This document shows positions 1 to 62,991 of a stretch of DNA of 64,000 nucleotides, one piece after another. The stretch's first letter is position 1, and every line of letters starts with the position of its first letter. The position numbers and the translations under genes are program-made. This DNA is from a virus: IMG/VR virus record IMGVR_UViG_3300024265_000039, positions 1-64,000 of that record. One strand, given 5' to 3'. The notes below the pieces were generated by a model. The model saw only the letters and a program-made list of their open reading frames with translations. It did no database searches and was not told the DNA's origin.

Positions 1-981
1 TTCCGATCTCAGGCAGGCTATACCATAACCCCCACCGGTAGGCTATCCCATAACCCCCCAAGCGGTGACGAAGAGGTAGGTTGTCCCATACCCCCCTCCA
101 TAGGTTATCCCATAACCCCCTCCCCGGCAGACTCTTTAAGTATATTAAAGATACCTATACAAAAAACACAAGATAAAACACATTTCCCTCCCCCCCCCGA
201 TGCGGGGGGTGACGGCACAACCATTAAAATCTCTCCAGCAACCAAAGGGGCAGCAACAAAAAAGCTCAATCAGGCGCGCAAATCCGCCCCCATCGACGAA
301 ACAGATTTACAGGTATGGCAACGGGTATTGGCTGACCAGGAGCGCGTGGTCGATCAATTGGTCTTGCACCACGCCAATGGAACTCCCAACCCCACAAAGC
401 TGGCACAGGAGCAGGCCGTGCTGCAAGTTTTGCAGGAACGCGATCCACGTAAAGCCTCCGGTGCGAAACGTAAGCGCCACCAACCGCCCACACCTGAGCA
501 AGACCCGCTTTACTACGCGCTGGCTCAGGTATACAAAATCCCCCCGGCAGCGACCGGTAAGTTGTGGGACTTACGCCACCTTTTTGCTGGCACGTCAATC
601 AAGGGCGAATGGGGCCGTTGTCGGCTCGATCCGGGGGCAACGGCTGATGAGGTGCGTGGTTGGGTGCGTTGGCGGCAGAGGAAATCATATGGTGAATTCC
701 GGTTACCTCAGATTCCTGCCGACATCCAAAAATCATTTTGCCGCTTTCGGGCAGACAAAGGTGGGTGGCAGGCTGGAATGCGCCGGGTCGGGGCTACGCC
801 ACCAGAACCGGTGAAATCAGTTCCGCCTCCGCCCGCCCATGAGATCATGCCGGGGATTTATACCATGCCCGTACTATCGCGCAAGCTGTGGCTGGACAGC
901 CGGGGATACGAATATGACCCAGAAACAATCATTCCGATAGGTGATCCCAGCCCTGAGCGATACGTAGGGGGGCAGTCGTGA
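1..981 (+). CDS. Phage replication initiator protein (5'-truncated by the window)
   Basis: Frame 1 is open from base 1 into ORF 328..981. It contains an iteron cluster and an AT-rich tract and lies upstream of PolX and the primase-helicase (lambda O-like layout). Confidence 0.65.
   Translation, partial: FRSQAGYTITPTGRLSHNPPSGDEEVGCPIPPSIGYPITPSPADSLSILKIPIQKTQDKTHFPPPPDAGGDGTTIKISPATKGAATKKLNQARKSAPIDETDLQVWQRVLADQERVVDQLVLHHANGTPNPTKLAQEQAVLQVLQERDPRKASGAKRKRHQPPTPEQDPLYYALAQVYKIPPAATGKLWDLRHLFAGTSIKGEWGRCRLDPGATADEVRGWVRWRQRKSYGEFRLPQIPADIQKSFCRFRADKGGWQAGMRRVGATPPEPVKSVPPPPAHEIMPGIYTMPVLSRKLWLDSRGYEYDPETIIPIGDPSPERYVGGQS
15..180. repeat. Putative replication origin: four ~20-bp iterons plus an A/T-rich tract
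   Basis: Consensus TAGGYTATCCCATAACCCCC at 15-33, 39-59, 77-96 and 101-120, followed by A/T-rich 131-180. Confidence 0.75.
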
Positions 982-1865
982 AATTACCCAGAGCGCAAGC
1001 AACTGCCAAACAGTTTATTGAACTCATATCCCCACACTGCGAATGGGTAGCGGTCGGGGGCAGTGTCCGCCGACAGCGCAACGAAGTAAAAGATATTGAG
1101 ATTATCGCTACCCCCACACCCGCACTCCTGCCATTTCTCGATCAGTTGGTGCAGGCAGGGAAATTGAAAAAGGCTGATTACGGTGGCCGGACACGCTGGG
1201 GACAGAAATATCGGGGAATGGTTTTTATGGAAGCGAAATGCGAATTATTTTTATGCGACCGCCTAAATCGTGGTTGGATTTATTATCTGCGAACTGGCCC
1301 GGCTAATTTGAACAAGATGCTGATGCTGAAGCTGGCACGACAAGCGCCGTTCCGGTTTAGCGGAGGGTATGGCTGGTATCAAGATCGGAAACTGGTGATC
1401 GCTACCGAAGAAAGTTTTTTCGACCTGTTGGGAATCGCCTACGTACCACCACACGAACGCACATTGAAGCGCTACAAAGAGCTTTTCGGTGCAGTCGATC
1501 ATGCCTGGGGGAATCCTCAGCAGTACATATCCCGCCAGAAGCAGGCAACCCAGAGCCAATCACAGGGAACGCTGTGGTGTCTGGAACGGATGCAGGAACT
1601 GGAAGAAGCACATGTAAAAAATATCACCAAGTCTAAAAAAACAACAGCCCTGATTCAATGGGGAAGCGAGTGGCTGGCTGACAACGATCTTGTCTACACC
1701 TATGACGGGTATGGACAGTGGGTCGCTCGTGACCAGGATCATCCAGCCACCCGGTACTGGCAACAGCATTATACCGATTATCCCGACGAGTTTAAAAATG
1801 CAACCGGGAGACTCAGAACCCATTTAAAAGCCGAACAAATTAGGGGAACAGATCATGTTACATGA
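978..1865 (+). CDS. X-family DNA polymerase (PolX, minimal catalytic plus thumb)
   Basis: GGSVRRQRNEVKDIEI nucleotidyltransferase motif, YYLRTGP, and EESFFDLLGIAYVPPHER thumb motif. Confidence 0.85.
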   Translation: MKLPRAQATAKQFIELISPHCEWVAVGGSVRRQRNEVKDIEIIATPTPALLPFLDQLVQAGKLKKADYGGRTRWGQKYRGMVFMEAKCELFLCDRLNRGWIYYLRTGPANLNKMLMLKLARQAPFRFSGGYGWYQDRKLVIATEESFFDLLGIAYVPPHERTLKRYKELFGAVDHAWGNPQQYISRQKQATQSQSQGTLWCLERMQELEEAHVKNITKSKKTTALIQWGSEWLADNDLVYTYDGYGQWVARDQDHPATRYWQQHYTDYPDEFKNATGRLRTHLKAEQIRGTDHVT

Positions 1866-3945
1866 AATATTGAAAGAACGCGGTATCGACCGGGCAGCCC
1901 ATGCCGCCCATTGGGAGATAGTTCCCGGCGGTTGGGAATATCCCGTTTACGATTGTCGTGAAGCGGATGAAATTGTGGTCCATCGCTTCAAGGCCCACAA
2001 CCATGGCAAGGGCGCAAAATACCAATGGCGACCGGAAAAGCCTGAATTGGGCTATACGCTGTACTACATGCTCCCAGGAACATTGGAGGCCATCGCCAGC
2101 GCAGGGGGGCTAGCATTTTTGGCTTCCGGCGAGCCGGATGTGCTCGCCTATCGTGCCGCCGGGTATGCCAATGTCCTGTGCTGGTTCGATGGCGAAAAAT
2201 CCGTCCCGGAATCTCTGCCCGACGATTTGCATGATTTCGGGGTGACCCGGTTGATTTATTTCCCTGACAACGATCAAACTGGCCGGGAAGCTACAACCAA
2301 AATTGCCGCGATCCTTGATGAAAGCGGGATTGAATTTGCGCCATACGACATCGGCGGTGATGAGAAGAATGACATCAATGCTGTCTGGATGGAATGCGAG
2401 TTTGACCAGGAGCGGTTCACTGAACAGCTAAAATCCTGCCCCCGCCTAGCTTTCCAAACACCAGCAGAGCCTACCCCGGCGCAGCAACCACTGCGGAAAT
2501 CTCCCCCCAGGAAATCATCTGAACAACCAAATACGTCAGGCATGTCGCCTAAGCAACAGGCCTGGGAAAATTATCTGGAAGAAGTCAAACAACATGTCCC
2601 CCAAGGCGACAGGAAAGGACGGTTCAATTGCCTCAATCCGTCTCACGATGACAGGAACCCAAGTGCTAGAGTTTCCTATGAGAAAAGCAATGAGGGGATT
2701 TATATCTGCCATTGTGGTAACAACTCCAGTTGGGGTTGGCCCGATGTCGGTAGCTGGCTGGGATTGCATTGGGAAAGCTATCGGGATGATTATGTTAAAG
2801 AGGTTGACAGGGAGGGAGTTGAAGATCGTCGTCAACAACAGTTGCGCGACTGGGCCGAGCGTCCATTGGAGACAGCCCCCCATATCGCCGAAGCACTCTC
2901 ATTCTCCGGGTATGGGGTAAAATGGGATGATATTCCTATCGAACGGCTTCTGTTTTCCTCTGACGACGCCGCCGCGCTTTACGCTATGAGGAAACGTGGC
3001 GCATATAAATCTTCAGAGTCCCCCGTTCCATTCCCGTTCTCAGCCTTCCACCATCTGGGGGGGGTGTTCGAGGTCGGATCAGTGGGAGATTCCTACGGGT
3101 TTCTGGGGTTATCGGGGATGGGTAAAACCTCATTCCTGGAAGCTATCATAGATACCGCCCGGCAATACGGATTCAACTGCCTGCTATTGTCACCAGAAAT
3201 CCCCTGGTGGAAATTGGCCGACCGGCAAGTACAACGGTGGGGGGGGGCAACGGTCACCCAGTCATTATTGGACGATCTGGCTTTCCAGGAAGAGCGACAG
3301 CCATTGAATGGGGGGCGACACTTTGGCCGTCACCTAACCGAAGATCAACTTGACCAGGGCCTACGGCAGTTGGACTGGGCCGGGCGATGGCCGGGGAAAC
3401 TGTGGGCATTGGATTACTTTGGGGCTGATGCCATCCAATTCCTGGCGGCAACCTACAAAGCCATCCACTTTCTACGCACTGTGATGCAGCAGCGCATCCA
3501 GTATCTGGTGATTGATTATCTACAATTATTGACACCCCCTCCAAGCTGGCGAGGGAAGATGACGCTCGAAGATATTATGCTCCGCATCCGGGCACTGGCG
3601 CACAACATGGGCTGTATACCCATTGCCACTTCGCAAGTACGGAAAACCGATGCTTCTATAGCGATGACAGGAAAATCCATCGGTCAGGACGCCGGGATGA
3701 ATTTGCGCCCTTTCCAGTTCAAGGGGTTCGGCACCATGCGTCCAGGGTTGGAAGTTATGCCAAATGGAAAAAAAGGCAAGGCAGATTATGTGGTGTTCAA
3801 CATCACCAAAAACAGCGAAGGCCGGACATCTAAATCTATCGAAGTGCAAGTTGACTGGCCCAAGATGCTGTTTGTGGATCATGTGCGCGGGGGACAGCGT
3901 GCCAACATTGAGTCTGTTCCGTCGTTACCGGAAGATGATGATTAG
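1855..3945 (+). CDS. Primase-helicase fusion (TOPRIM, Zn finger, DnaB-like SF4 helicase)
   Basis: SGEPDVLA and FPDNDQTG (TOPRIM); CLNPSHDDRNPS..CHCG (CHC2-like); GLSGMGKTS, LVIDYLQLL and TSQVRK (helicase). Confidence 0.85.
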   Translation: MLHEILKERGIDRAAHAAHWEIVPGGWEYPVYDCREADEIVVHRFKAHNHGKGAKYQWRPEKPELGYTLYYMLPGTLEAIASAGGLAFLASGEPDVLAYRAAGYANVLCWFDGEKSVPESLPDDLHDFGVTRLIYFPDNDQTGREATTKIAAILDESGIEFAPYDIGGDEKNDINAVWMECEFDQERFTEQLKSCPRLAFQTPAEPTPAQQPLRKSPPRKSSEQPNTSGMSPKQQAWENYLEEVKQHVPQGDRKGRFNCLNPSHDDRNPSARVSYEKSNEGIYICHCGNNSSWGWPDVGSWLGLHWESYRDDYVKEVDREGVEDRRQQQLRDWAERPLETAPHIAEALSFSGYGVKWDDIPIERLLFSSDDAAALYAMRKRGAYKSSESPVPFPFSAFHHLGGVFEVGSVGDSYGFLGLSGMGKTSFLEAIIDTARQYGFNCLLLSPEIPWWKLADRQVQRWGGATVTQSLLDDLAFQEERQPLNGGRHFGRHLTEDQLDQGLRQLDWAGRWPGKLWALDYFGADAIQFLAATYKAIHFLRTVMQQRIQYLVIDYLQLLTPPPSWRGKMTLEDIMLRIRALAHNMGCIPIATSQVRKTDASIAMTGKSIGQDAGMNLRPFQFKGFGTMRPGLEVMPNGKKGKADYVVFNITKNSEGRTSKSIEVQVDWPKMLFVDHVRGGQRANIESVPSLPEDDD

Positions 3946-3953
3946 GGGGATAT

Positions 3954-4772
3954 ATGCTGAGTCAACGCTATATTGATCTATGTGAAGAACACGAACTTTA
4001 CGAACGTCGTGATACCCCCTTAGTATTTACAGCATTCAGTGGTGGGGCAGACAGCACCGCTCTGGCGGTAGCATTCCCCAATTCGATTCCGGTTTTCACT
4101 GATACCGGATGGGAATTTCCAGAATTATATGAGCAGATTGAAAAGTTTGAGCGGATTACTGGCAGGCGCATTATCAAAATTACACCAAGCGAGTCTTTGC
4201 CGGATTACATTCACCGGACAAAATATCTTCCTGGATTTGGCAGCCGATTTTGCACACGCATATACAAAATCGAAGCTCTAAACAAACGGTTGGGTCGCTT
4301 TGCAAAATACTACAAAGTTATTCTGTGCGTTGGGTTAAGGGCCGACGAGCCACCAGCCCAAAGGGTGGGCAATTTAACAAATATGCCCAATTTGTCCATA
4401 CGCTATCCTTTGCGTGAGGCTGGGATTGACAAGGCCGGGGTGGATCGCATTTGCGAAAAACATAGATTGATGCCTCAATACCCTGTTTATATGTTGCGAG
4501 GGGGATGTATGGGATGCTACCAAAAACGCAAAAGCGAGGTCAAAGCAATGGCGGTACTATGTCCAGAAATCCTTGACAAACTACAAGCATTAGAAGAAGC
4601 CATACAGGATGAACGCGGCAAATTTGCGGTGATGTTTTCGGGCATAAAATTTGCAGGTAAACAAATGAGTATTCGTGAGATTCGAAGGCAACCAACTTTA
4701 TTCGATCTCAAGCCCTATTACACCGACGCCGCTACAATGAATTCGCCATGCGGGATTTTTTGCAATCGATAG
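3954..4772 (+). CDS. Phosphoadenosine phosphosulfate reductase (PP-loop) family protein
   Basis: FSGGADST, DTGWEFPE, RFCT, GLRADE, YPL and GCMGC motifs. Confidence 0.85.
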   Translation: MLSQRYIDLCEEHELYERRDTPLVFTAFSGGADSTALAVAFPNSIPVFTDTGWEFPELYEQIEKFERITGRRIIKITPSESLPDYIHRTKYLPGFGSRFCTRIYKIEALNKRLGRFAKYYKVILCVGLRADEPPAQRVGNLTNMPNLSIRYPLREAGIDKAGVDRICEKHRLMPQYPVYMLRGGCMGCYQKRKSEVKAMAVLCPEILDKLQALEEAIQDERGKFAVMFSGIKFAGKQMSIREIRRQPTLFDLKPYYTDAATMNSPCGIFCNR

Positions 4773-7139: not shown

Positions 7140-8171
7140 TCAAATGCTCCATCCCGGTTGTCGCTCCTGCCAGTCCACTTCCATACCCACGTAGGCTTCG
7201 GTCACTTGCAGCGATGAGTGTCCCAGATTTTCCCGCAGGGCCTCCCAGGGCATCCCGGTATCCCTGCACAGCTTGGCGTAGGTGCGCCGTAGATCATGTG
7301 CAGCCAGTTTCACCGGTTGCCCGTCGTGCTGGGCGGCATACGCGCCGATCAATCGTTGTGCGCCCCTGGCCGACAAGGGCGTGTCAACATGAGAATAACG
7401 TTTTGAGCGTGGGTTCCACATCGCTCGGTAGAATACCGCATGATCCGGGGATAGTTGTGGTTCCAGGCCGACCTGGTCAATATATGCCTGAGCGTAGGCC
7501 AGCGCCCAGCTATCCCACTTGTTCAGCACGACCACCCGACTTTTGCCATGCTTCCCCCGGCGGACATAGACTCCGCGCTGTCCCTTATCGTTCCAGGTCT
7601 GAAATAGGTCTCGCGCTGTGAGGGATACCGCCTCGGTCACTCTCAGCCCGGTTGCGGCCATGACTGCGACGAGCGCCCGGTCACGCAACCCCTTGATGTG
7701 ATTGGTCGGTATCCCCTCGATATACTGACGTAATTCTGCCAGGGTCAATCTGAGACCATAATCCCGCTCGATCCGATCTTGCTGGATTATGGCTTTGGCG
7801 TCTTTGGCTTTAGCCCAGTCGCGCAAGACCGTTTTCATCTGGAAGTCGGGCACGTCATCGGCGATGGCATGGAGCAGTTGGCGTACCGACGCCAATTTGA
7901 CGTTTATCGTGCGGAGGGCGTATCTCTTACCAGTTGAAGCCAGTACCCGCCCGGCCAACATGTCGTCGCGCCATGCTTCGATTGTCGTCTTGGTAGGGTA
8001 GGGCGATTCTGTGTCCACCATGTAAGCCATGAAGTCCTGGATGCCCCGACCATAGTTTTTGGCCCGGCTGCTGCGCTGTGACGGCGGCAAAGAATCTTCC
8101 GCTAGAAGCGCGTGATGGTGGGAGATCAGAGCATCAAGCTGATTGGATGGGAAGGGGACGATCTGGGACAT
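7140..8171 (-). CDS. Tyrosine recombinase/integrase (XerC/D-like)
   Basis: RDRALV..TGLRVTE, GKHGKSR, HDLRRTYA and LGHSSLQVTEAY catalytic motifs. Confidence 0.95.
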   Translation of the reverse strand: MSQIVPFPSNQLDALISHHHALLAEDSLPPSQRSSRAKNYGRGIQDFMAYMVDTESPYPTKTTIEAWRDDMLAGRVLASTGKRYALRTINVKLASVRQLLHAIADDVPDFQMKTVLRDWAKAKDAKAIIQQDRIERDYGLRLTLAELRQYIEGIPTNHIKGLRDRALVAVMAATGLRVTEAVSLTARDLFQTWNDKGQRGVYVRRGKHGKSRVVVLNKWDSWALAYAQAYIDQVGLEPQLSPDHAVFYRAMWNPRSKRYSHVDTPLSARGAQRLIGAYAAQHDGQPVKLAAHDLRRTYAKLCRDTGMPWEALRENLGHSSLQVTEAYVGMEVDWQERQPGWSI

Positions 8172-8539
8172 CAGGCGCGTACCGCCGATACGAGCATTAA
8201 CAGGTGGTCAATTGAGCAAACCTCAAATCCATAACGTTGTTCTGCTGAACATATTAAGAGTTGCCAATGGAAATCTCCGCGCCGGATTTCGAACCAGCCC
8301 CAGATTGGAAAGCCCAGGTCGATAATCCCACCATAGGGGGGCTTCGTTTTATTAAACATAAAGTGTGAGCGACGACCAGCTTCATCCATCAAGCTGGTTA
8401 TTTTGTCTGAAGCAGCCCACCAGGGCACAAATACGGTGAGCGATAGGGTTTCAAACGATTTATCCTCGTAGTGTACCCCAAAGGTTTCATACTCTGGCAG
8501 GAAACAAATTCGCATTTCCGGCTTGAATGCATAAATCAT
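8171..8539 (-). CDS. Hypothetical protein
   Basis: Start and stop overlap the neighbouring genes. Confidence 0.55.
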   Translation of the reverse strand: MIYAFKPEMRICFLPEYETFGVHYEDKSFETLSLTVFVPWWAASDKITSLMDEAGRRSHFMFNKTKPPYGGIIDLGFPIWGWFEIRRGDFHWQLLICSAEQRYGFEVCSIDHLLMLVSAVRA

Positions 8540-8805
8540 AACTGAGACAGACTCCTAGATTGCATTGCTTGAAACCGGGCATATGTCTCATCATCGATTT
8601 TCCCCAAACATATCATCAATGCATTGAACCCCATCGCGCCCCCACTAAACTCGTGCCCAGTAGCGATATTAACGTTGCTCAATTTACCATCACTGTCGAT
8701 CCGAAGAGCACGCCCTAGGACTTTGATTGTCTCACCCTGAGCCAGAGCTACCAGGGCAGTACGGGCGCGTTCAACCTCCATTTTTTCATTCATCGTTGTA
8801 CTCAT
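8536..8805 (-). CDS. Hypothetical protein
   Basis: GGAGGAG RBS; coupled to neighbours. Confidence 0.6.
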   Translation of the reverse strand: MSTTMNEKMEVERARTALVALAQGETIKVLGRALRIDSDGKLSNVNIATGHEFSGGAMGFNALMICLGKIDDETYARFQAMQSRSLSQL

Positions 8806-18483: not shown

Positions 18484-18895
18484 GCTACAATGGTAGTTGA
18501 GTACAAACTGAGGCTTAGTCTCAGATTGATGAACGGTCTTAAAGTGTAGGTTCGAATCCTGCCCTCGCCAAACGTGGCGGGGTAGCCCAACAGGTAGAGG
18601 CACCAGACCGAACAACCAAGCTCAGATTCTTACTCAAGACTGAGCATCGCCGTTATCGTCAAATCGACTGTTCGGAAACAGACATTGCAAGATGTGAGTT
18701 CAACTCTCACCCGTTGCTCTTGATGTACATAACCTTTCTTATGCGACGGTAGCTTAACGATAGAGCGTGCGCTGATTAGACTGATTTCCCAACTTAAATG
18801 CCGTTGGCGTGCAAAGAGACGGCAAGCGATAGTGATCGCTTAAAACGATCATAGCAAATAACCGTTCAGGGTAGGGTAACTCTGGGCGGTTTGCG
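18484..18895 (+). ncRNA. Large structured RNA with two circularly permuted tRNA-like domains (YrlA-like topology)
   Basis: T-arm, acceptor hairpin, D-arm order at 18546-18602 and 18694-18767; anticodon-like hairpin at 18832-18852. Confidence 0.75.
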
Positions 18896-18908
18896 TTATA
18901 TCAGAGAA

Positions 18909-19028
18909 ATAAAAAAACACCCGCTTGCTGCTCATGTGTGGGCAGTCTGGCGGGGTGTCCGCCTCCCCCGGTATTGGTTCTACCACCTACCGGTCAAGTT
19001 CTGAACAATTAGTTGCCCGTGTGGGCAC
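18909..19028 (-). ncRNA. Possible ~120-nt small RNA (or 16-aa peptide gene) with its own promoter and terminator
   Basis: TGTGCTATAAT at 19045-19035 on the minus strand; ends in a CACCCCGC/GCGGGTG stem plus T7. Confidence 0.35.
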
Positions 19029-19146
19029 ATAGACATTATAGCACAAAACCCCAATACATAGTATCGAGGCTTTGTGTTCTGTGATGAAACTGGCAACTCA
19101 ATTATACCACCAATTGTTTCAAGCCACAACATAGAAAGGATAGAAG

Positions 19147-49068: not shown

Positions 49069-51288
49069 CTAGCTAGTGGCGATCTTGAGGACTTTGATCG
49101 CAGCCGGTTGGGTTACCTGCCCACCCAATCGTGCGCGTCCTAAAAAGAGCGCCTGATCCTGTACTGCATAGGCGCTATCGTCAAACCGTCGAATGCTGAA
49201 TTCTATCCGCTTGCCGATGGTGTAGCCACGGCTCAAATCGCCCAGAATGAGCGGGAAAGCGTTGGCGGCGATGTCGTCAGCGAATTCGTTGTAGACAATC
49301 GGGCGGTTCAAAAGCGATGCGGGGATGCCCTGGTTCAAGCCTTGGTCATCGCCCCACAGATAACGACCGTTAGCATCTTTGATCTGAGCAATGATGTCGG
49401 CAGTATTGGAGTTCATGAACCATTTGGCACGCTTGCGGTATCCGGGCGGTAGCTGAAGCAGCATACTTCGAATAACATCTGGGTCATCCATGGTCGCGGC
49501 TTTCCCACTGGCAAGGTAACCGGAGACACTGGAAACGGCGGTGCTGGCCGATCCGGTGACGCGGGTATCATTGACAATCCCCGACATTTTACCCTGGCCG
49601 TCACCACCCCAAATCAACTCCTCATATTCCTTGGCAATGGCCTCTGCGAATGATTCGGAGATCATCTCTTGCAGATCGAAGGCGGCGTCTTCCAGCGCGG
49701 ATAGAGTTGATGTGGTACTGACAAGCGATACATGGATAGGCAATTGGATTTGCCCCAAGGTGATTTCCGAGATGGCTGAAGCTGCTTGGTTGGCAGGAGA
49801 TTCCCCAGGCCAACTAACGCTACCTGAATAGGCACGACGGCCATCAGACGTAATCAGATCAGGGATCAGAACCCGATCACTTGACGTTTGGCGAACTTTA
49901 CATTCCGCCGCAGTAACTGCATCGACCATGATGTTACGATTCAGTTCGCGCACAAAATCGTCAGGGACAGCAAACCCGATACTGCCTGATGTGCTGGTGT
50001 TGAGCGCCTTGATCGCCTGACCATCAGAATTGCGATGGCTATCAGCGCTCCCCATATCCCTTTCGCCACTCCGCAGGATATAACGCTGGGTTTCGTTCAT
50101 ATTGGGCAGACCGAAACGGATATATTGTACGAATGCTGACTTGTACGCCTTTGGCTGGTCGGCAGCATCCTGGACAACCCGGACGCGCCCCTGCCCTACC
50201 TGGTCTTCACCGGGAGCGGTCATCTGCTCCAATTGGGCAACACGGTCTTCAAGTTTCTCGGTGTAGGATTTGCGGCCCCGTGTCTTTGTACGCGCCTTTG
50301 ATCGACGACGACGGGCCAACTTTTTCATCATGGCACGGAAACTTTTTTCTCCCGCTTCATCATCGTCGAGTTCGGCCATCATAGCTTCGACCGCTTCATC
50401 ATCGTCGAGTTCGGCCATCACAGCGTCGTCGTCTTCATCAAGACCGTCCATCATCACGGCGTCTTCATCATCATCAAGACCGTCCATCATCACGGCGTCG
50501 TCGTCTTCGTCGAGACCGTCCATCGACACGGCGTCGTCATCATCGTCGAGACCGTCCATCGACACGGCGTCGTCGTCTTCGTCGAGACCGTCCATCATCA
50601 CGGTATCATCTTCATCAAGATCGGCGGCAATAGCCTCCACATCTTCTTCAGTAGCTCGATACCCATAAGTTTTCAGGGTATTGCGAACAAATTGCAACGT
50701 GCTTTTTCGTGGCATTGGTGGTTCTCCTTCAATTTGTGTTGACTTCGTAGATATGCCTTCCATCTGTGCGAGGTAAACATGCACAGGGTCAGATTCCGGC
50801 AAGACTGCCTTCATTGCCCGTACCGTAGTTTTATGCGGTTGCGCCGGTGTGGGCGTAATGCTTCCCTCGAATAGAGGCCATACTAAAATCTCTCCGTCAG
50901 GTGCAATTTTCACCAGATGGTCAATGCTTCCCGATGACCAACCGAACTGATGCTGCTTGATCGTCCCGTAGACTTCACGGGCATATTTGTTGGCGAGATC
51001 AATTTGCGCCTGCACCCATAACCCAACATCATCACGCTTCAATGTCTTGACCCTCCCGATTGGATCAAGACCCAACTTGCCGTCGAAACCATGATGAAAT
51101 AGCAGAGGGTAATCAGGAAAATAGTCCAGACGTAACTCAGTTCGGGGGGTGAAAAACTGACCTTCTAAATCCGCATCCGTTGATTTTCCCCAGGCAATCA
51201 GGTAACCCTCGACAAGGCCATTGCCTAACGGTCGTGCCTTGACTCGTAATCCAGGGTGATGAACCATTGTACCGGGGGGTGCAACCAT
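49069..51288 (-). CDS. Prohead protease-scaffold-major capsid protein fusion (HK97 fold)
   Basis: Protease: GYLIAWG, DLEGQFF, LLFHHG, GLWVQAQ, WSSGS, SITPTPA. Capsid: GFAVPDDF, WPGE, GDGQGK, WFMN, KDANGRYLW, LLNRPIV, GDLSRGY. GGAGG RBS at the ATG at 51288. Confidence 0.93.
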   Translation of the reverse strand: MVAPPGTMVHHPGLRVKARPLGNGLVEGYLIAWGKSTDADLEGQFFTPRTELRLDYFPDYPLLFHHGFDGKLGLDPIGRVKTLKRDDVGLWVQAQIDLANKYAREVYGTIKQHQFGWSSGSIDHLVKIAPDGEILVWPLFEGSITPTPAQPHKTTVRAMKAVLPESDPVHVYLAQMEGISTKSTQIEGEPPMPRKSTLQFVRNTLKTYGYRATEEDVEAIAADLDEDDTVMMDGLDEDDDAVSMDGLDDDDDAVSMDGLDEDDDAVMMDGLDDDEDAVMMDGLDEDDDAVMAELDDDEAVEAMMAELDDDEAGEKSFRAMMKKLARRRRSKARTKTRGRKSYTEKLEDRVAQLEQMTAPGEDQVGQGRVRVVQDAADQPKAYKSAFVQYIRFGLPNMNETQRYILRSGERDMGSADSHRNSDGQAIKALNTSTSGSIGFAVPDDFVRELNRNIMVDAVTAAECKVRQTSSDRVLIPDLITSDGRRAYSGSVSWPGESPANQAASAISEITLGQIQLPIHVSLVSTTSTLSALEDAAFDLQEMISESFAEAIAKEYEELIWGGDGQGKMSGIVNDTRVTGSASTAVSSVSGYLASGKAATMDDPDVIRSMLLQLPPGYRKRAKWFMNSNTADIIAQIKDANGRYLWGDDQGLNQGIPASLLNRPIVYNEFADDIAANAFPLILGDLSRGYTIGKRIEFSIRRFDDSAYAVQDQALFLGRARLGGQVTQPAAIKVLKIATS
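50356..50620 (-). repeat. Acidic 36-bp tandem repeat (~7x DDAVMMDGLDED) in the scaffold region
   Basis: Visible in both protein and DNA. Confidence 0.9.
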
Positions 51289-51421
51289 AGGGGAGCCTCC
51301 TGAAAAAACAAAAGCCCCAACCTGTATGAGTAATACAGGTCGGGGCACATTTGTACGCAGACCAAAAACAAACTCGATTTCAGCCTACCACAAACAAAGG
51401 GGATTGCGCAACCCCCCAATT

Positions 51422-61119: not shown

Positions 61120-61914
61120 CTACTTTTTGCCCCGTAAGACCTGCTTCGCTTCAAAATCAAGTCCGGCTCCAGCAGTACGAATCCACCATAAGGCACTTTC
61201 AAATTGCTTAACCTGATCTTTTTGAGTACGCGCCGAATAAACCTTCCGTATTTCCCTGGCGCCCTCATTTAACCGATCTCTAGCATTCTCGATTGCCTGA
61301 GTCCGATAAGTGACCCAAAGAGAATTAAGCCCATTAGCCAGCTTCTTTGCCCTGGCTTCCACTTTCTTGACAATTGCTTTGTCCGGTGCTTGTCGGGGGG
61401 ATGAAATAGCCGCTAACTTGTAACATTCCCGCGCCAACAAACGTAGCTTTTTCGCCATTCGGCGCTGCTCCGGCGACACAACCTTCACACGTCGTTCATA
61501 CGCTCGGATCACGCTTCGCCGCGATAGGCGAGGGTTGCGCTGTTTGCGCTTAAAATTCAGAGCATATCGATGCGCAAGCCTTGCCTGCTGTACCGCCATA
61601 ATCATGTGGCGGCGATAATCCCTATCATTGACAGGGGTTCTTCGCGCCAAAACCCTCCGTAAGGAAACCTTCGCCTTCTTAATGCTGTCTCCCCCTCGCT
61701 CAATAGCAATCCTTAGCGATTCAGAGTCGGGGGATTTGGGGATACCTGGAAGCATACTCACCATCTCGCTCCGAAGAAAACCGAGATGGTCAAGAGCCAA
61801 CGGCGCGGCTTTATGGTTCAAGTCCGGCTGGCGCTTGAATATCTCCCTGTCCAGCGAAGCCATAGCGTCGCGTACAAGTTTTAGTTGATGATCGGTAATC
61901 TGATTTGTTGGCAT
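61120..61914 (-). CDS. Highly basic two-domain helical protein
   Basis: AAGGGGG RBS; extended -10 TGTGGTAAGAT at ~62077-62067. Confidence 0.65.
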   Translation of the reverse strand: MPTNQITDHQLKLVRDAMASLDREIFKRQPDLNHKAAPLALDHLGFLRSEMVSMLPGIPKSPDSESLRIAIERGGDSIKKAKVSLRRVLARRTPVNDRDYRRHMIMAVQQARLAHRYALNFKRKQRNPRLSRRSVIRAYERRVKVVSPEQRRMAKKLRLLARECYKLAAISSPRQAPDKAIVKKVEARAKKLANGLNSLWVTYRTQAIENARDRLNEGAREIRKVYSARTQKDQVKQFESALWWIRTAGAGLDFEAKQVLRGKK

Positions 61915-62099
61915 TTCATAGCCCCTTTTTCTGAAGAACTGGCCGGGCAATCAGTCTGTTGTTCTCTTTAACCAGATGATGGTCAATTGACCAAGTCTAC
62001 GCGAAATTGCGCTTCTGAGAGTATCGTCCAATACCAGCTTACCCTGCCCGACCAACCTTATTTATAATCTTACCACAAAACGATTATAAAAGAAAGCAT

Positions 62100-62525
62100 C
62101 AGATTGGATATTTAACGCAAGTTCTCCACCGGGCAATGCCTCCTCTAAAACAAAAACACACCGCAAGAGCCATGCCGTCCACCAGGGGAACGCCGGGAAA
62201 TGGCATTGGTTCGCGTGGTGCGTGTTTTGTCTTTTGAGTATATGCCCGGTGTGAGACCGCGTTTCTTGCCGTCTGGGGTATAGGACTTGGCCCTATCGCG
62301 CAGACGGCCATCGCCAGTAGGGGGTACGACGGTTACCATGCACAGACAAGTGAACGGCAGGTGTCGTACACCCCAACGCACCAAAATGCGCTTTCTTAGC
62401 GACGGTGCGCGGAGTATTCACACGGCGCAATGAGTTTCGTCGGGAAAGACTACACTCATTTACAAGTATGAATAATCTCCGCGCAGCATTCAAGTCGCAG
62501 TGAAGCACTACGACAGAATGATCGG
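62100..62525 (+). ncRNA. Putative large structured RNA antisense to the packaging operon
   Basis: Five consecutive long helices with G-U pairs consistent with the + strand; TATAAT at 62063-62068. Confidence 0.55.
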
Positions 62526-62539
62526 AGGTTGTGAGGGGG

Positions 62540-62991
62540 TTAGCCTTCCGATTGAGCTTCGCCGGTTGCCCAATTTTCACCCTTAATCACTTCAGTATTT
62601 CGGGGTTCGGCAGGGCATGGGGTCAAGGTGATCCCAGTGGGAACCCAGCGTGTAATTTGCCCATCCACGCTATCAACGACAAAACTCATTGATGCATAAT
62701 GTAACTGCCCTTGTTCTATCAAGCCCTGGACTCCTTTTCTGACCAGGGCATCCTCGTCAAGTTGAGTTTCTACCCACAGCCCAACTGCATCGCGTTTAAC
62801 GACGCGGGCTATACCAACGAGAACAGTTCTTGAGGACTCTGGATCGAGTCCATCCACAAAAACAGGCATTGCTTCATCTAGGATAACGATGTTCGTTTCC
62901 GGGGTGAAATATTCGCCTTGCAGATCAGTCTGGTCGGGGCCCCCCAAACAATGAAATACCCCCTAATGCATGGGCCATCCGAGTTATCCAT
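62540..62991 (-). pseudogene. Second, degenerate prohead-protease paralog with a frameshift in a G6 run
   Basis: IRGYFIVWG (from ATG 62991) continues in the -1 frame as GPDQTDLQGEYFTPET..GLWVETQL..TLTPCPAEPRN; the His motif is lost. Confidence 0.7.

Follow-up and report, generated by a model that had tools for sequence, protein, structure and literature searches.

A ~400-nt array of strongly folding hairpins in a non-coding gap between the terminase and portal genes of a phage genome

The late-gene cluster of this phage contains a non-coding array of about 400 nt made up of five structural domains, one of them a three-way junction, with a predicted fold far stronger than that of shuffled sequence. 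Most of the array folds preferentially on the minus strand, which is also the sense strand for the late genes. We tentatively read it, with a probability of about 0.38, as the structured 3′ end or an intercistronic spacer of the terminase transcript, where it may act as a nuclease barrier and/or a processing site. The window, the whole stretch of DNA that was analysed, is 64,000 nt long and comprises bases 1–64000 of a virus record of 86,108 bp whose ends overlap. The overlapping ends carry iteron-like repeats with an 18-nt C-rich unit (window 1–100, genome 86009–86108), which may represent an origin or an assembly wrap-around.

All genes around the element are encoded on the minus strand (Table 1). 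A sequence-only reading of this DNA had placed the element between the terminase and portal genes, which is right for the interval but not for adjacency, as orf111 and orf135 lie on the terminase side and orf264 and orf485 on the portal side. The orf135 product contains a prohead-protease-like domain and is a 33%-identical paralogue of the N-terminal protease domain of a protease-capsid fusion (49069–51348), with VDG where the fusion reads HHG. The frames of orf111 and orf135 are one and the same, split by a TAA and, seven codons on, by a TAG (62948–62986, minus strand). Jointly the two are similar to related proteins over the N-terminal region and the protease domain, and the split could be a broken paralogue or a case of read-through. 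The product of orf264 is highly basic (Arg/Lys-rich) and helical; a search of a large protein collection found no homologue besides itself, and comparison with a protein atlas gave only helical-bundle look-alikes (TM <0.5). The fusion of the portal to a 2H phosphoesterase is also present in 21 other proteins (~920–1065 aa, on contigs of up to 91 kb) and thus marks a phage group.

Table 1. Structural domains, sequence signals and genes in and around the array (energies in kcal/mol).
Feature	Position	Strand	Remarks
Portal fused to 2H (LigT-like) phosphoesterase, 1024 aa	56556–59630	−	
orf485, 485 aa	59642–61099	−	
orf264, 264 aa	61120–61914	−	Downstream of element; ATG at 61914; GGGG 7–10 nt upstream of ATG
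Non-coding gap, 625 nt	Between orf135 and orf264		
Perfect 14-bp palindrome	61980–61993		66–79 nt upstream of orf264 ATG
A/T-rich inverted repeat, 9-nt arms 12 nt apart	62061–62090		TATAAT on both strands
H1, 139-nt imperfect rod	62120–62258	No preference	Minus −64.3, z −5.89; plus −64.5, z −5.53
H2, 41-nt stem-loop	62268–62308	−	Minus z −3.85; plus z −4.01
Three-way junction	62309–62405	−	Minus −49.4, z −5.98; plus −39.0, z −3.60
H3	62320–62374		Junction part
H3b	62375–62392		Junction part
Closing stem			Junction part
H4, 80-nt stem-loop	62406–62485	−	Minus −39.7, z −7.43; plus −36.6, z −6.94
H5	62487–62520	−	Minus −17.0, z −4.81; plus −12.3, z −2.63
orf135, 135 aa	62540–62947	−	Upstream of element; stop codon 62540–62542
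orf111, 111 aa	62984–63319	−	
Large terminase (P0001)	63340–64812	−	PHROG 2, E 8.7e-12

The fold of the 463 nt at 62063–62525 has a predicted energy of −186.3 kcal/mol on the plus strand (z −10.12) and −204.5 kcal/mol on the minus strand (z −9.82), and on either strand 0 of 100 shuffles folded as well. With z about −10 on both strands, the large and highly paired non-coding stretch recognized in the sequence-only reading folds far beyond chance, and the helices named there are all present in the sequence at their positions. Each of the five domains is significant when folded alone. The helices are interrupted every 9 bp or less, and H1, H3 and H4 contain more than 20 pairs each. In the three-way junction, H3b and the closing stem depend on the minus strand to form well, and the junction recurs when the 257-nt block 62262–62518 is folded. 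H4 is closed by a 9-bp helix and has the apical loop UUUCCC on the minus strand. H5 is the first significant stem-loop past the stop codon of orf135, and the hairpins start 20 nt after that stop. When the complete 86-kb genome was scanned in sliding windows of 150 nt, 5 of the 25 most over-folded minus-strand windows lay at 62101–62550, as did 4 of the 25 on the plus strand; the array is the longest over-folded run on both strands. The element is single-copy in the genome. Folding as single-stranded DNA is strong as well (z −7.53). Three copies of a 12-nt motif fall within 300 nt in the element (62127–62138, 62191–62202 and 62421–62432), its overall count being at chance (8 found, 8.1 expected); the triplet may be an internal duplication or a binding motif.

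The G-U wobbles had been taken to favour the plus strand. We pooled the folds of the two strands and counted mismatches with a Watson-Crick pair on either side, and over all helices the bias is the opposite (12 minus-type, 6 plus-type and 5 other); a plus-strand bias survives, weakly, only for H1 (4 plus-type against 3 minus-type). Inside 62262–62518 there are nine minus-type wobbles and no plus-type wobble; a plus-type wobble involving 62501 has its partner outside this block. Of the nine, six fall in helices common to the predictions for the two strands, and the other three come from minus-only helices, which makes them partly circular. Two of the minus-type wobbles are in H4 (62421/62468 and 62428/62462). 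Against composition-matched shuffles, the same block has a z of −9.65 on the minus strand vs. −6.12 on the plus strand. Composition is not the cause of this difference, since G and T make up 264 of 516 bases of the minus strand. Thus, from the wobble bias and the differences in z, H2–H5 carry an RNA-level signature on the late-gene sense strand. H1 could belong to either strand, or to the DNA level.

The ORFs of the gap do look spurious, as the sequence-only reading held. Six of them (32–95 aa) have no Pfam match at E-values up to 1, the 95-aa ORF has neither a Pfam nor a PHROG match, and a TBLASTX of the gap against 168 loci and the remaining genome gave a best E-value of 0.059. One minus frame has 3 stops vs. 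7–10 in each of the other five; it translates to an Arg-, His-, Cys- and Trp-rich sequence that is not protein-like. With no evidence of coding, we consider the element to be non-coding. It also matches none of the known RNA families. Rfam at gathering thresholds gave no match in the whole window, and at E-values up to 10 the region 61800–62700, both strands included, gave just two matches that we read as chance, to a plant microRNA (E 3.5) and to a hammerhead fragment of 32 nt (E 9.1). At that same threshold there was no Rfam match to 6S, pRNA, group I/II introns or self-cleaving ribozymes, nor, at the element, to GOLLD, ROOL, OLE, HEARO, raiA or YrlA. ARAGORN found no tRNA in the window or in 60000–70000.

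Another gene-free gap, of 663 nt at 18484–19146 on the plus strand, has a fold z of −4.07 and a T-loop-like motif. Sub-threshold Rfam matches to YrlA (Y RNA-like) are found there at 18522–18626 (27 bits, E 0.0021) and 18672–18794 (22.6 bits), together with one to tRNA at 18492–18564 (20.8 bits), a site at which ARAGORN calls no tRNA. The genome that bears these YrlA-like matches has no TROVE or RtcB gene; TROVE, RtcB and reverse transcriptase have no match anywhere in it.

A BLASTN against 50,697 phage records found no homologue of the element. BLASTN and nhmmer against 80, then 160 terminase loci gave nothing below an E-value of 0.3. Eight portal-related records, representing seven distinct contigs, gave a best BLASTN E-value of 0.014 over 29 nt and no nhmmer match, and four MAG genomes gave 0.157 or worse. 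Four of 401 Chloroflexota genomes have matches of 20–41 nt at per-genome E-values of 0.0016–0.0077, which are expected by chance over 401 genomes. An exact 22-mer search of a metagenome collection gave no match. The single-sequence covariance model of the junction, searched against 146 sources (46 + 100, with loci L139–L171 and L174 left out), recovered only itself and its own reverse strand. One sequencing run alone contains this stretch; it is probably that of the source DNA sample, and between 61000 and 63500 its contigs are identical, with no variant. Searches of viral contigs with orf276, orf485, the terminase and the portal as single queries found none, and P0137 as a single query likewise gave no match. 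Related phages had been named as the place to look for homologues with covariation; the relatives searched had no sequence homologue. With only one genome to go by, the orphan element offers no covariation, and selection for structure cannot be shown from a single sequence.

Terminase homologues at ~50% identity are numerous, and the best genomic ones are in Chloroflexota and Anaerolineae MAGs. Matches in the 160 loci are limited to terL, the upstream 224-aa ORF, the orf135 domain and 44–51 residues of orf485; as judged by sequence similarity, the downstream module is not common to these terminase relatives. The true relatives are the phages with the same portal-2H fusion (21 proteins, 36–52% identity, several on contigs of 73–91 kb). 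The nearest matches are P0003 and P0005 for the terminase (56% and 54% identity) and P0126 and P0128 for the portal (52% and 51%), all of them present only in Logan or ENA assemblies. Seven distinct portal-2H contigs were compared as eight records, L172 and L174 being one contig. Sequence upstream of the portal is available for L172, L173, L176, L178 and L180 (2 kb), ~580 nt of it for L177 and almost none for L175 and L179. The terminase-portal intervals of L172, L173, L176 and L178 have no comparable over-folded run. In the corresponding place, L176 carries a T-tailed hairpin of 10 bp (7703–7728) just before an orf485-like gene. L178 has there a gap of 304 nt, with an overall z of about −4, in which two GC-rich hairpins are followed by U-tails. 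The gap of L172 contains a promoter-like site (10/12 match). L178 also encodes a 1014-aa ORF without a Pfam match (1618–4662), which is followed by a small ORF, the terminator gap and the portal.

The TATAAT noted upstream of the element is present at 62063–62068. It forms one arm of the A/T-rich inverted repeat, in which both strands read TATAAT. This repeat is a possible promoter region. A consensus promoter scan of both strands over 61700–62800 accepted no site, which fits read-in from upstream. The terminator scan found no minus-strand hairpin with a U-tract and two weak plus-strand sites at the level of shuffles. By this measure the minus strand lacks an intrinsic terminator, which needs a GC-rich hairpin followed by a U-tract. 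The genome does use canonical terminators: at 51314–51346, on the minus strand, a 14-bp GC hairpin followed by a T-tail forms a textbook example. It overlaps the first codons of the protease-capsid ORF as listed (49069–51348), the true start of which is probably further in. The 14-bp palindrome, with up to two mismatches, has 3 sites in the window vs. 0.27 expected, a number reached by 1 of 100 shuffles. The other two sites (8205–8218 and 8676–8689) are near copies in the early region. The palindrome is a candidate operator and may serve a phage regulator.

We infer that the array is co-transcribed with the terminase genes and has a stabilising or processing role at a transcription-unit boundary, which in relatives would be marked by plain terminators. 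A transcript carrying the terminase genes would run past the stop codon of orf135 into H5, H4, the junction, H2 and H1, and beyond them would come the A/T-rich inverted repeat, the operator-like palindrome and the orf264-orf485-portal block. The array would block 3′-to-5′ exonucleases and/or offer sites for double-strand-specific (RNase III-type) processing, and would keep the terminase and head-gene messages apart, with a regulated promoter of the head block lying just downstream. Consistent with this 3′-end reading are the same-strand flanks, the minus bias of 62262–62518, a junction that closes on the minus strand alone, the start of the hairpins so soon after the orf135 stop, boundary signals in three of the four relatives scanned and the palindrome between the element and orf264. 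Against it, there is no minus-strand U-tract, though canonical terminators occur elsewhere in the genome; H1 is unbiased as to strand, folding as single-stranded DNA is strong and related phages lack the element. Five hairpins and a junction are also far more than a nuclease barrier needs.

Other explanations keep an RNA role for the element, or for part of it. The array could be a free-standing, trans-acting ncRNA of ~400 nt, transcribed from the minus strand or cut from the late transcript, that serves as a protein scaffold or decoy and does not act in cis. Its size, the three-way junction and the frequent breaks in its helices resemble those of stable structured RNAs. The clustering of the 12-nt motif, which genome-wide is at chance, and the very Arg/Lys-rich, helical product of the next gene, orf264, are in line with such an RNA. 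However, the minus strand has no accepted promoter or terminator, Rfam has no match, and no homologue is found in the 7 distinct portal-related loci, the 160 terminase-related loci or the 401 Chloroflexota genomes; we consider this explanation rather unlikely. It is highly unlikely that the element is a new large phage RNA that works with Arg/Lys-rich head proteins as an assembly scaffold, capsid cargo or packaging cofactor, which would make it a functional analogue, unrelated in sequence, of the phi29 pRNA in a Chloroflexota-type phage with a portal-2H fusion. The context for this proposal is that orf264 lies directly downstream of the element and that other head genes with Arg/Lys-rich helical modules are close by. 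H1 by itself might be a plus-strand small RNA of ~195 nt that starts past the TATAAT and ends at a U-rich stretch. The TATAAT does have a TTACCC 18 nt upstream, H1 folds equally well on the plus strand, where it has its 4 plus-type wobbles, and GUUUCUU follows it there. But the −35 matches at only 3 of 6 positions, the site was rejected by the promoter scan, neither 6S nor any other family matches, and the remainder of the array prefers the minus strand. Such a transcript, which would run antisense to no coding sequence and converge with the terminase transcript, strikes us as quite improbable.

The remaining explanations do without a function as free or spacer RNA. The hairpins could be a cluster of imperfect palindromes acting as DNA, as sites of protein binding, recombination or single-strand initiation. 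The single-stranded DNA fold, the z near −10 on both strands and the strand-neutral H1 are all compatible with this, but the 9-to-0 wobble bias and the gap of 3.5 z units over 62262–62518 are unexpected for DNA palindromes. The element also lacks a repeated binding-site architecture, and the iteron-like repeats are instead at the ends of the record; we find a DNA-level role very improbable. Somewhat easier to envisage, though still improbable, is a lineage-specific insert or remnant of little function, such as a mobile hairpin element or a decayed gene, that would have come in alongside orf264, itself an orphan, and the broken paralogue of the protease. Both the element and orf264 are found in this phage alone, orf111 and orf135 are one frame interrupted by two stops, and one minus frame of the gap has unusually few stops. 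Yet neutral decay yields neither a z of −10 nor a one-sided wobble bias, the element has a single copy in this genome and none in the 401 Chloroflexota genomes, TBLASTX is blank and the open frame has the biased R/H/C/W composition described above. A self-splicing intron linking orf135 to orf264 is hardly credible. The 625-nt gap with its many hairpins would suit an intron without an ORF, and the protease-capsid fusion likewise places a basic helical segment after a protease domain. No group I or II model matches at E-values up to 10, though, orf264 has its own ATG and a G-rich ribosome site, and no homologue bridging orf135 and orf264 is found among the loci. Nor is the sixth hairpin, which lies over the orf135 stop codon (62519–62553), significant, and it has no U-G pair.

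The element comes from barely studied phages of subsurface Chloroflexota-like hosts and has no Rfam family. If transcribed and stable, it would be among the largest structured RNA elements in a tailed-phage morphogenesis cluster. The array would then be a test case for how such phages separate terminase and head-gene expression, and for RNA binding by Arg-rich head proteins. As a single-genome orphan, it is of limited general importance. A limited literature search turned up no named element of this kind, which is not proof of its absence from print.

Several known systems share some features with the array. The sequence-only reading had called the first rod loosely 6S-like. Like 6S RNA (RF00013 and related), H1 is rod-shaped, at ~140 nt, but the central bubble of 6S RNA is large and imitates an open promoter, whereas the internal loops of H1 reach 4–5 nt at most; H1 makes up only a third of the array, and the rod has no Rfam match at E-values up to 10. 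The likeness did not hold. The phi29 pRNA is also a structured, phage-encoded RNA with a three-way junction, here found near packaging and portal genes; the shared junction, formed here on the minus strand only, is generic and not diagnostic. The phi29 pRNA is ~170 nt long and located at a genome end, whereas the element is ~400 nt long and lies inside the late cluster, has no Rfam match and is absent from relatives of the same portal family. The packaging role that the sequence-only reading drew from the location found no support. GOLLD and ROOL are described as large ornate RNAs from phages and prophages (PMC12286853). The likeness is that of a phage-borne structured RNA of several hundred nt, and the difference is that the element consists largely of hairpins in a row, joined by a single junction, with no Rfam match and no family members found. 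A dispersed palindromic repeat (REP/ERIC/MITE-like) is contradicted by the single genome copy and the chance-level matches in 4 of 401 Chloroflexota genomes.

The plain terminators of L176 and L178 have the same position relative to the terminase and portal-side genes as the element; they consist of one or two short GC hairpins with U-tails, whereas the element has no minus-strand U-tail. Phage T7 has intercistronic RNase III hairpins, and bacterial polycistronic messages carry REP-type stabiliser hairpins. The element shares with these the irregular hairpins of at least 20 bp, in a non-coding gap of a same-strand cluster and just past a stop codon. Judged on predicted structure, it contains the irregular hairpin of about two turns that characterizes RNase III-type sites in polycistronic messages. 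The T7 and REP hairpins are single hairpins of 50–60 nt, whereas the element has five domains with a junction over ~400 nt, in a single copy. The element is real and unlike any curated RNA family, but so far comes from one genome.
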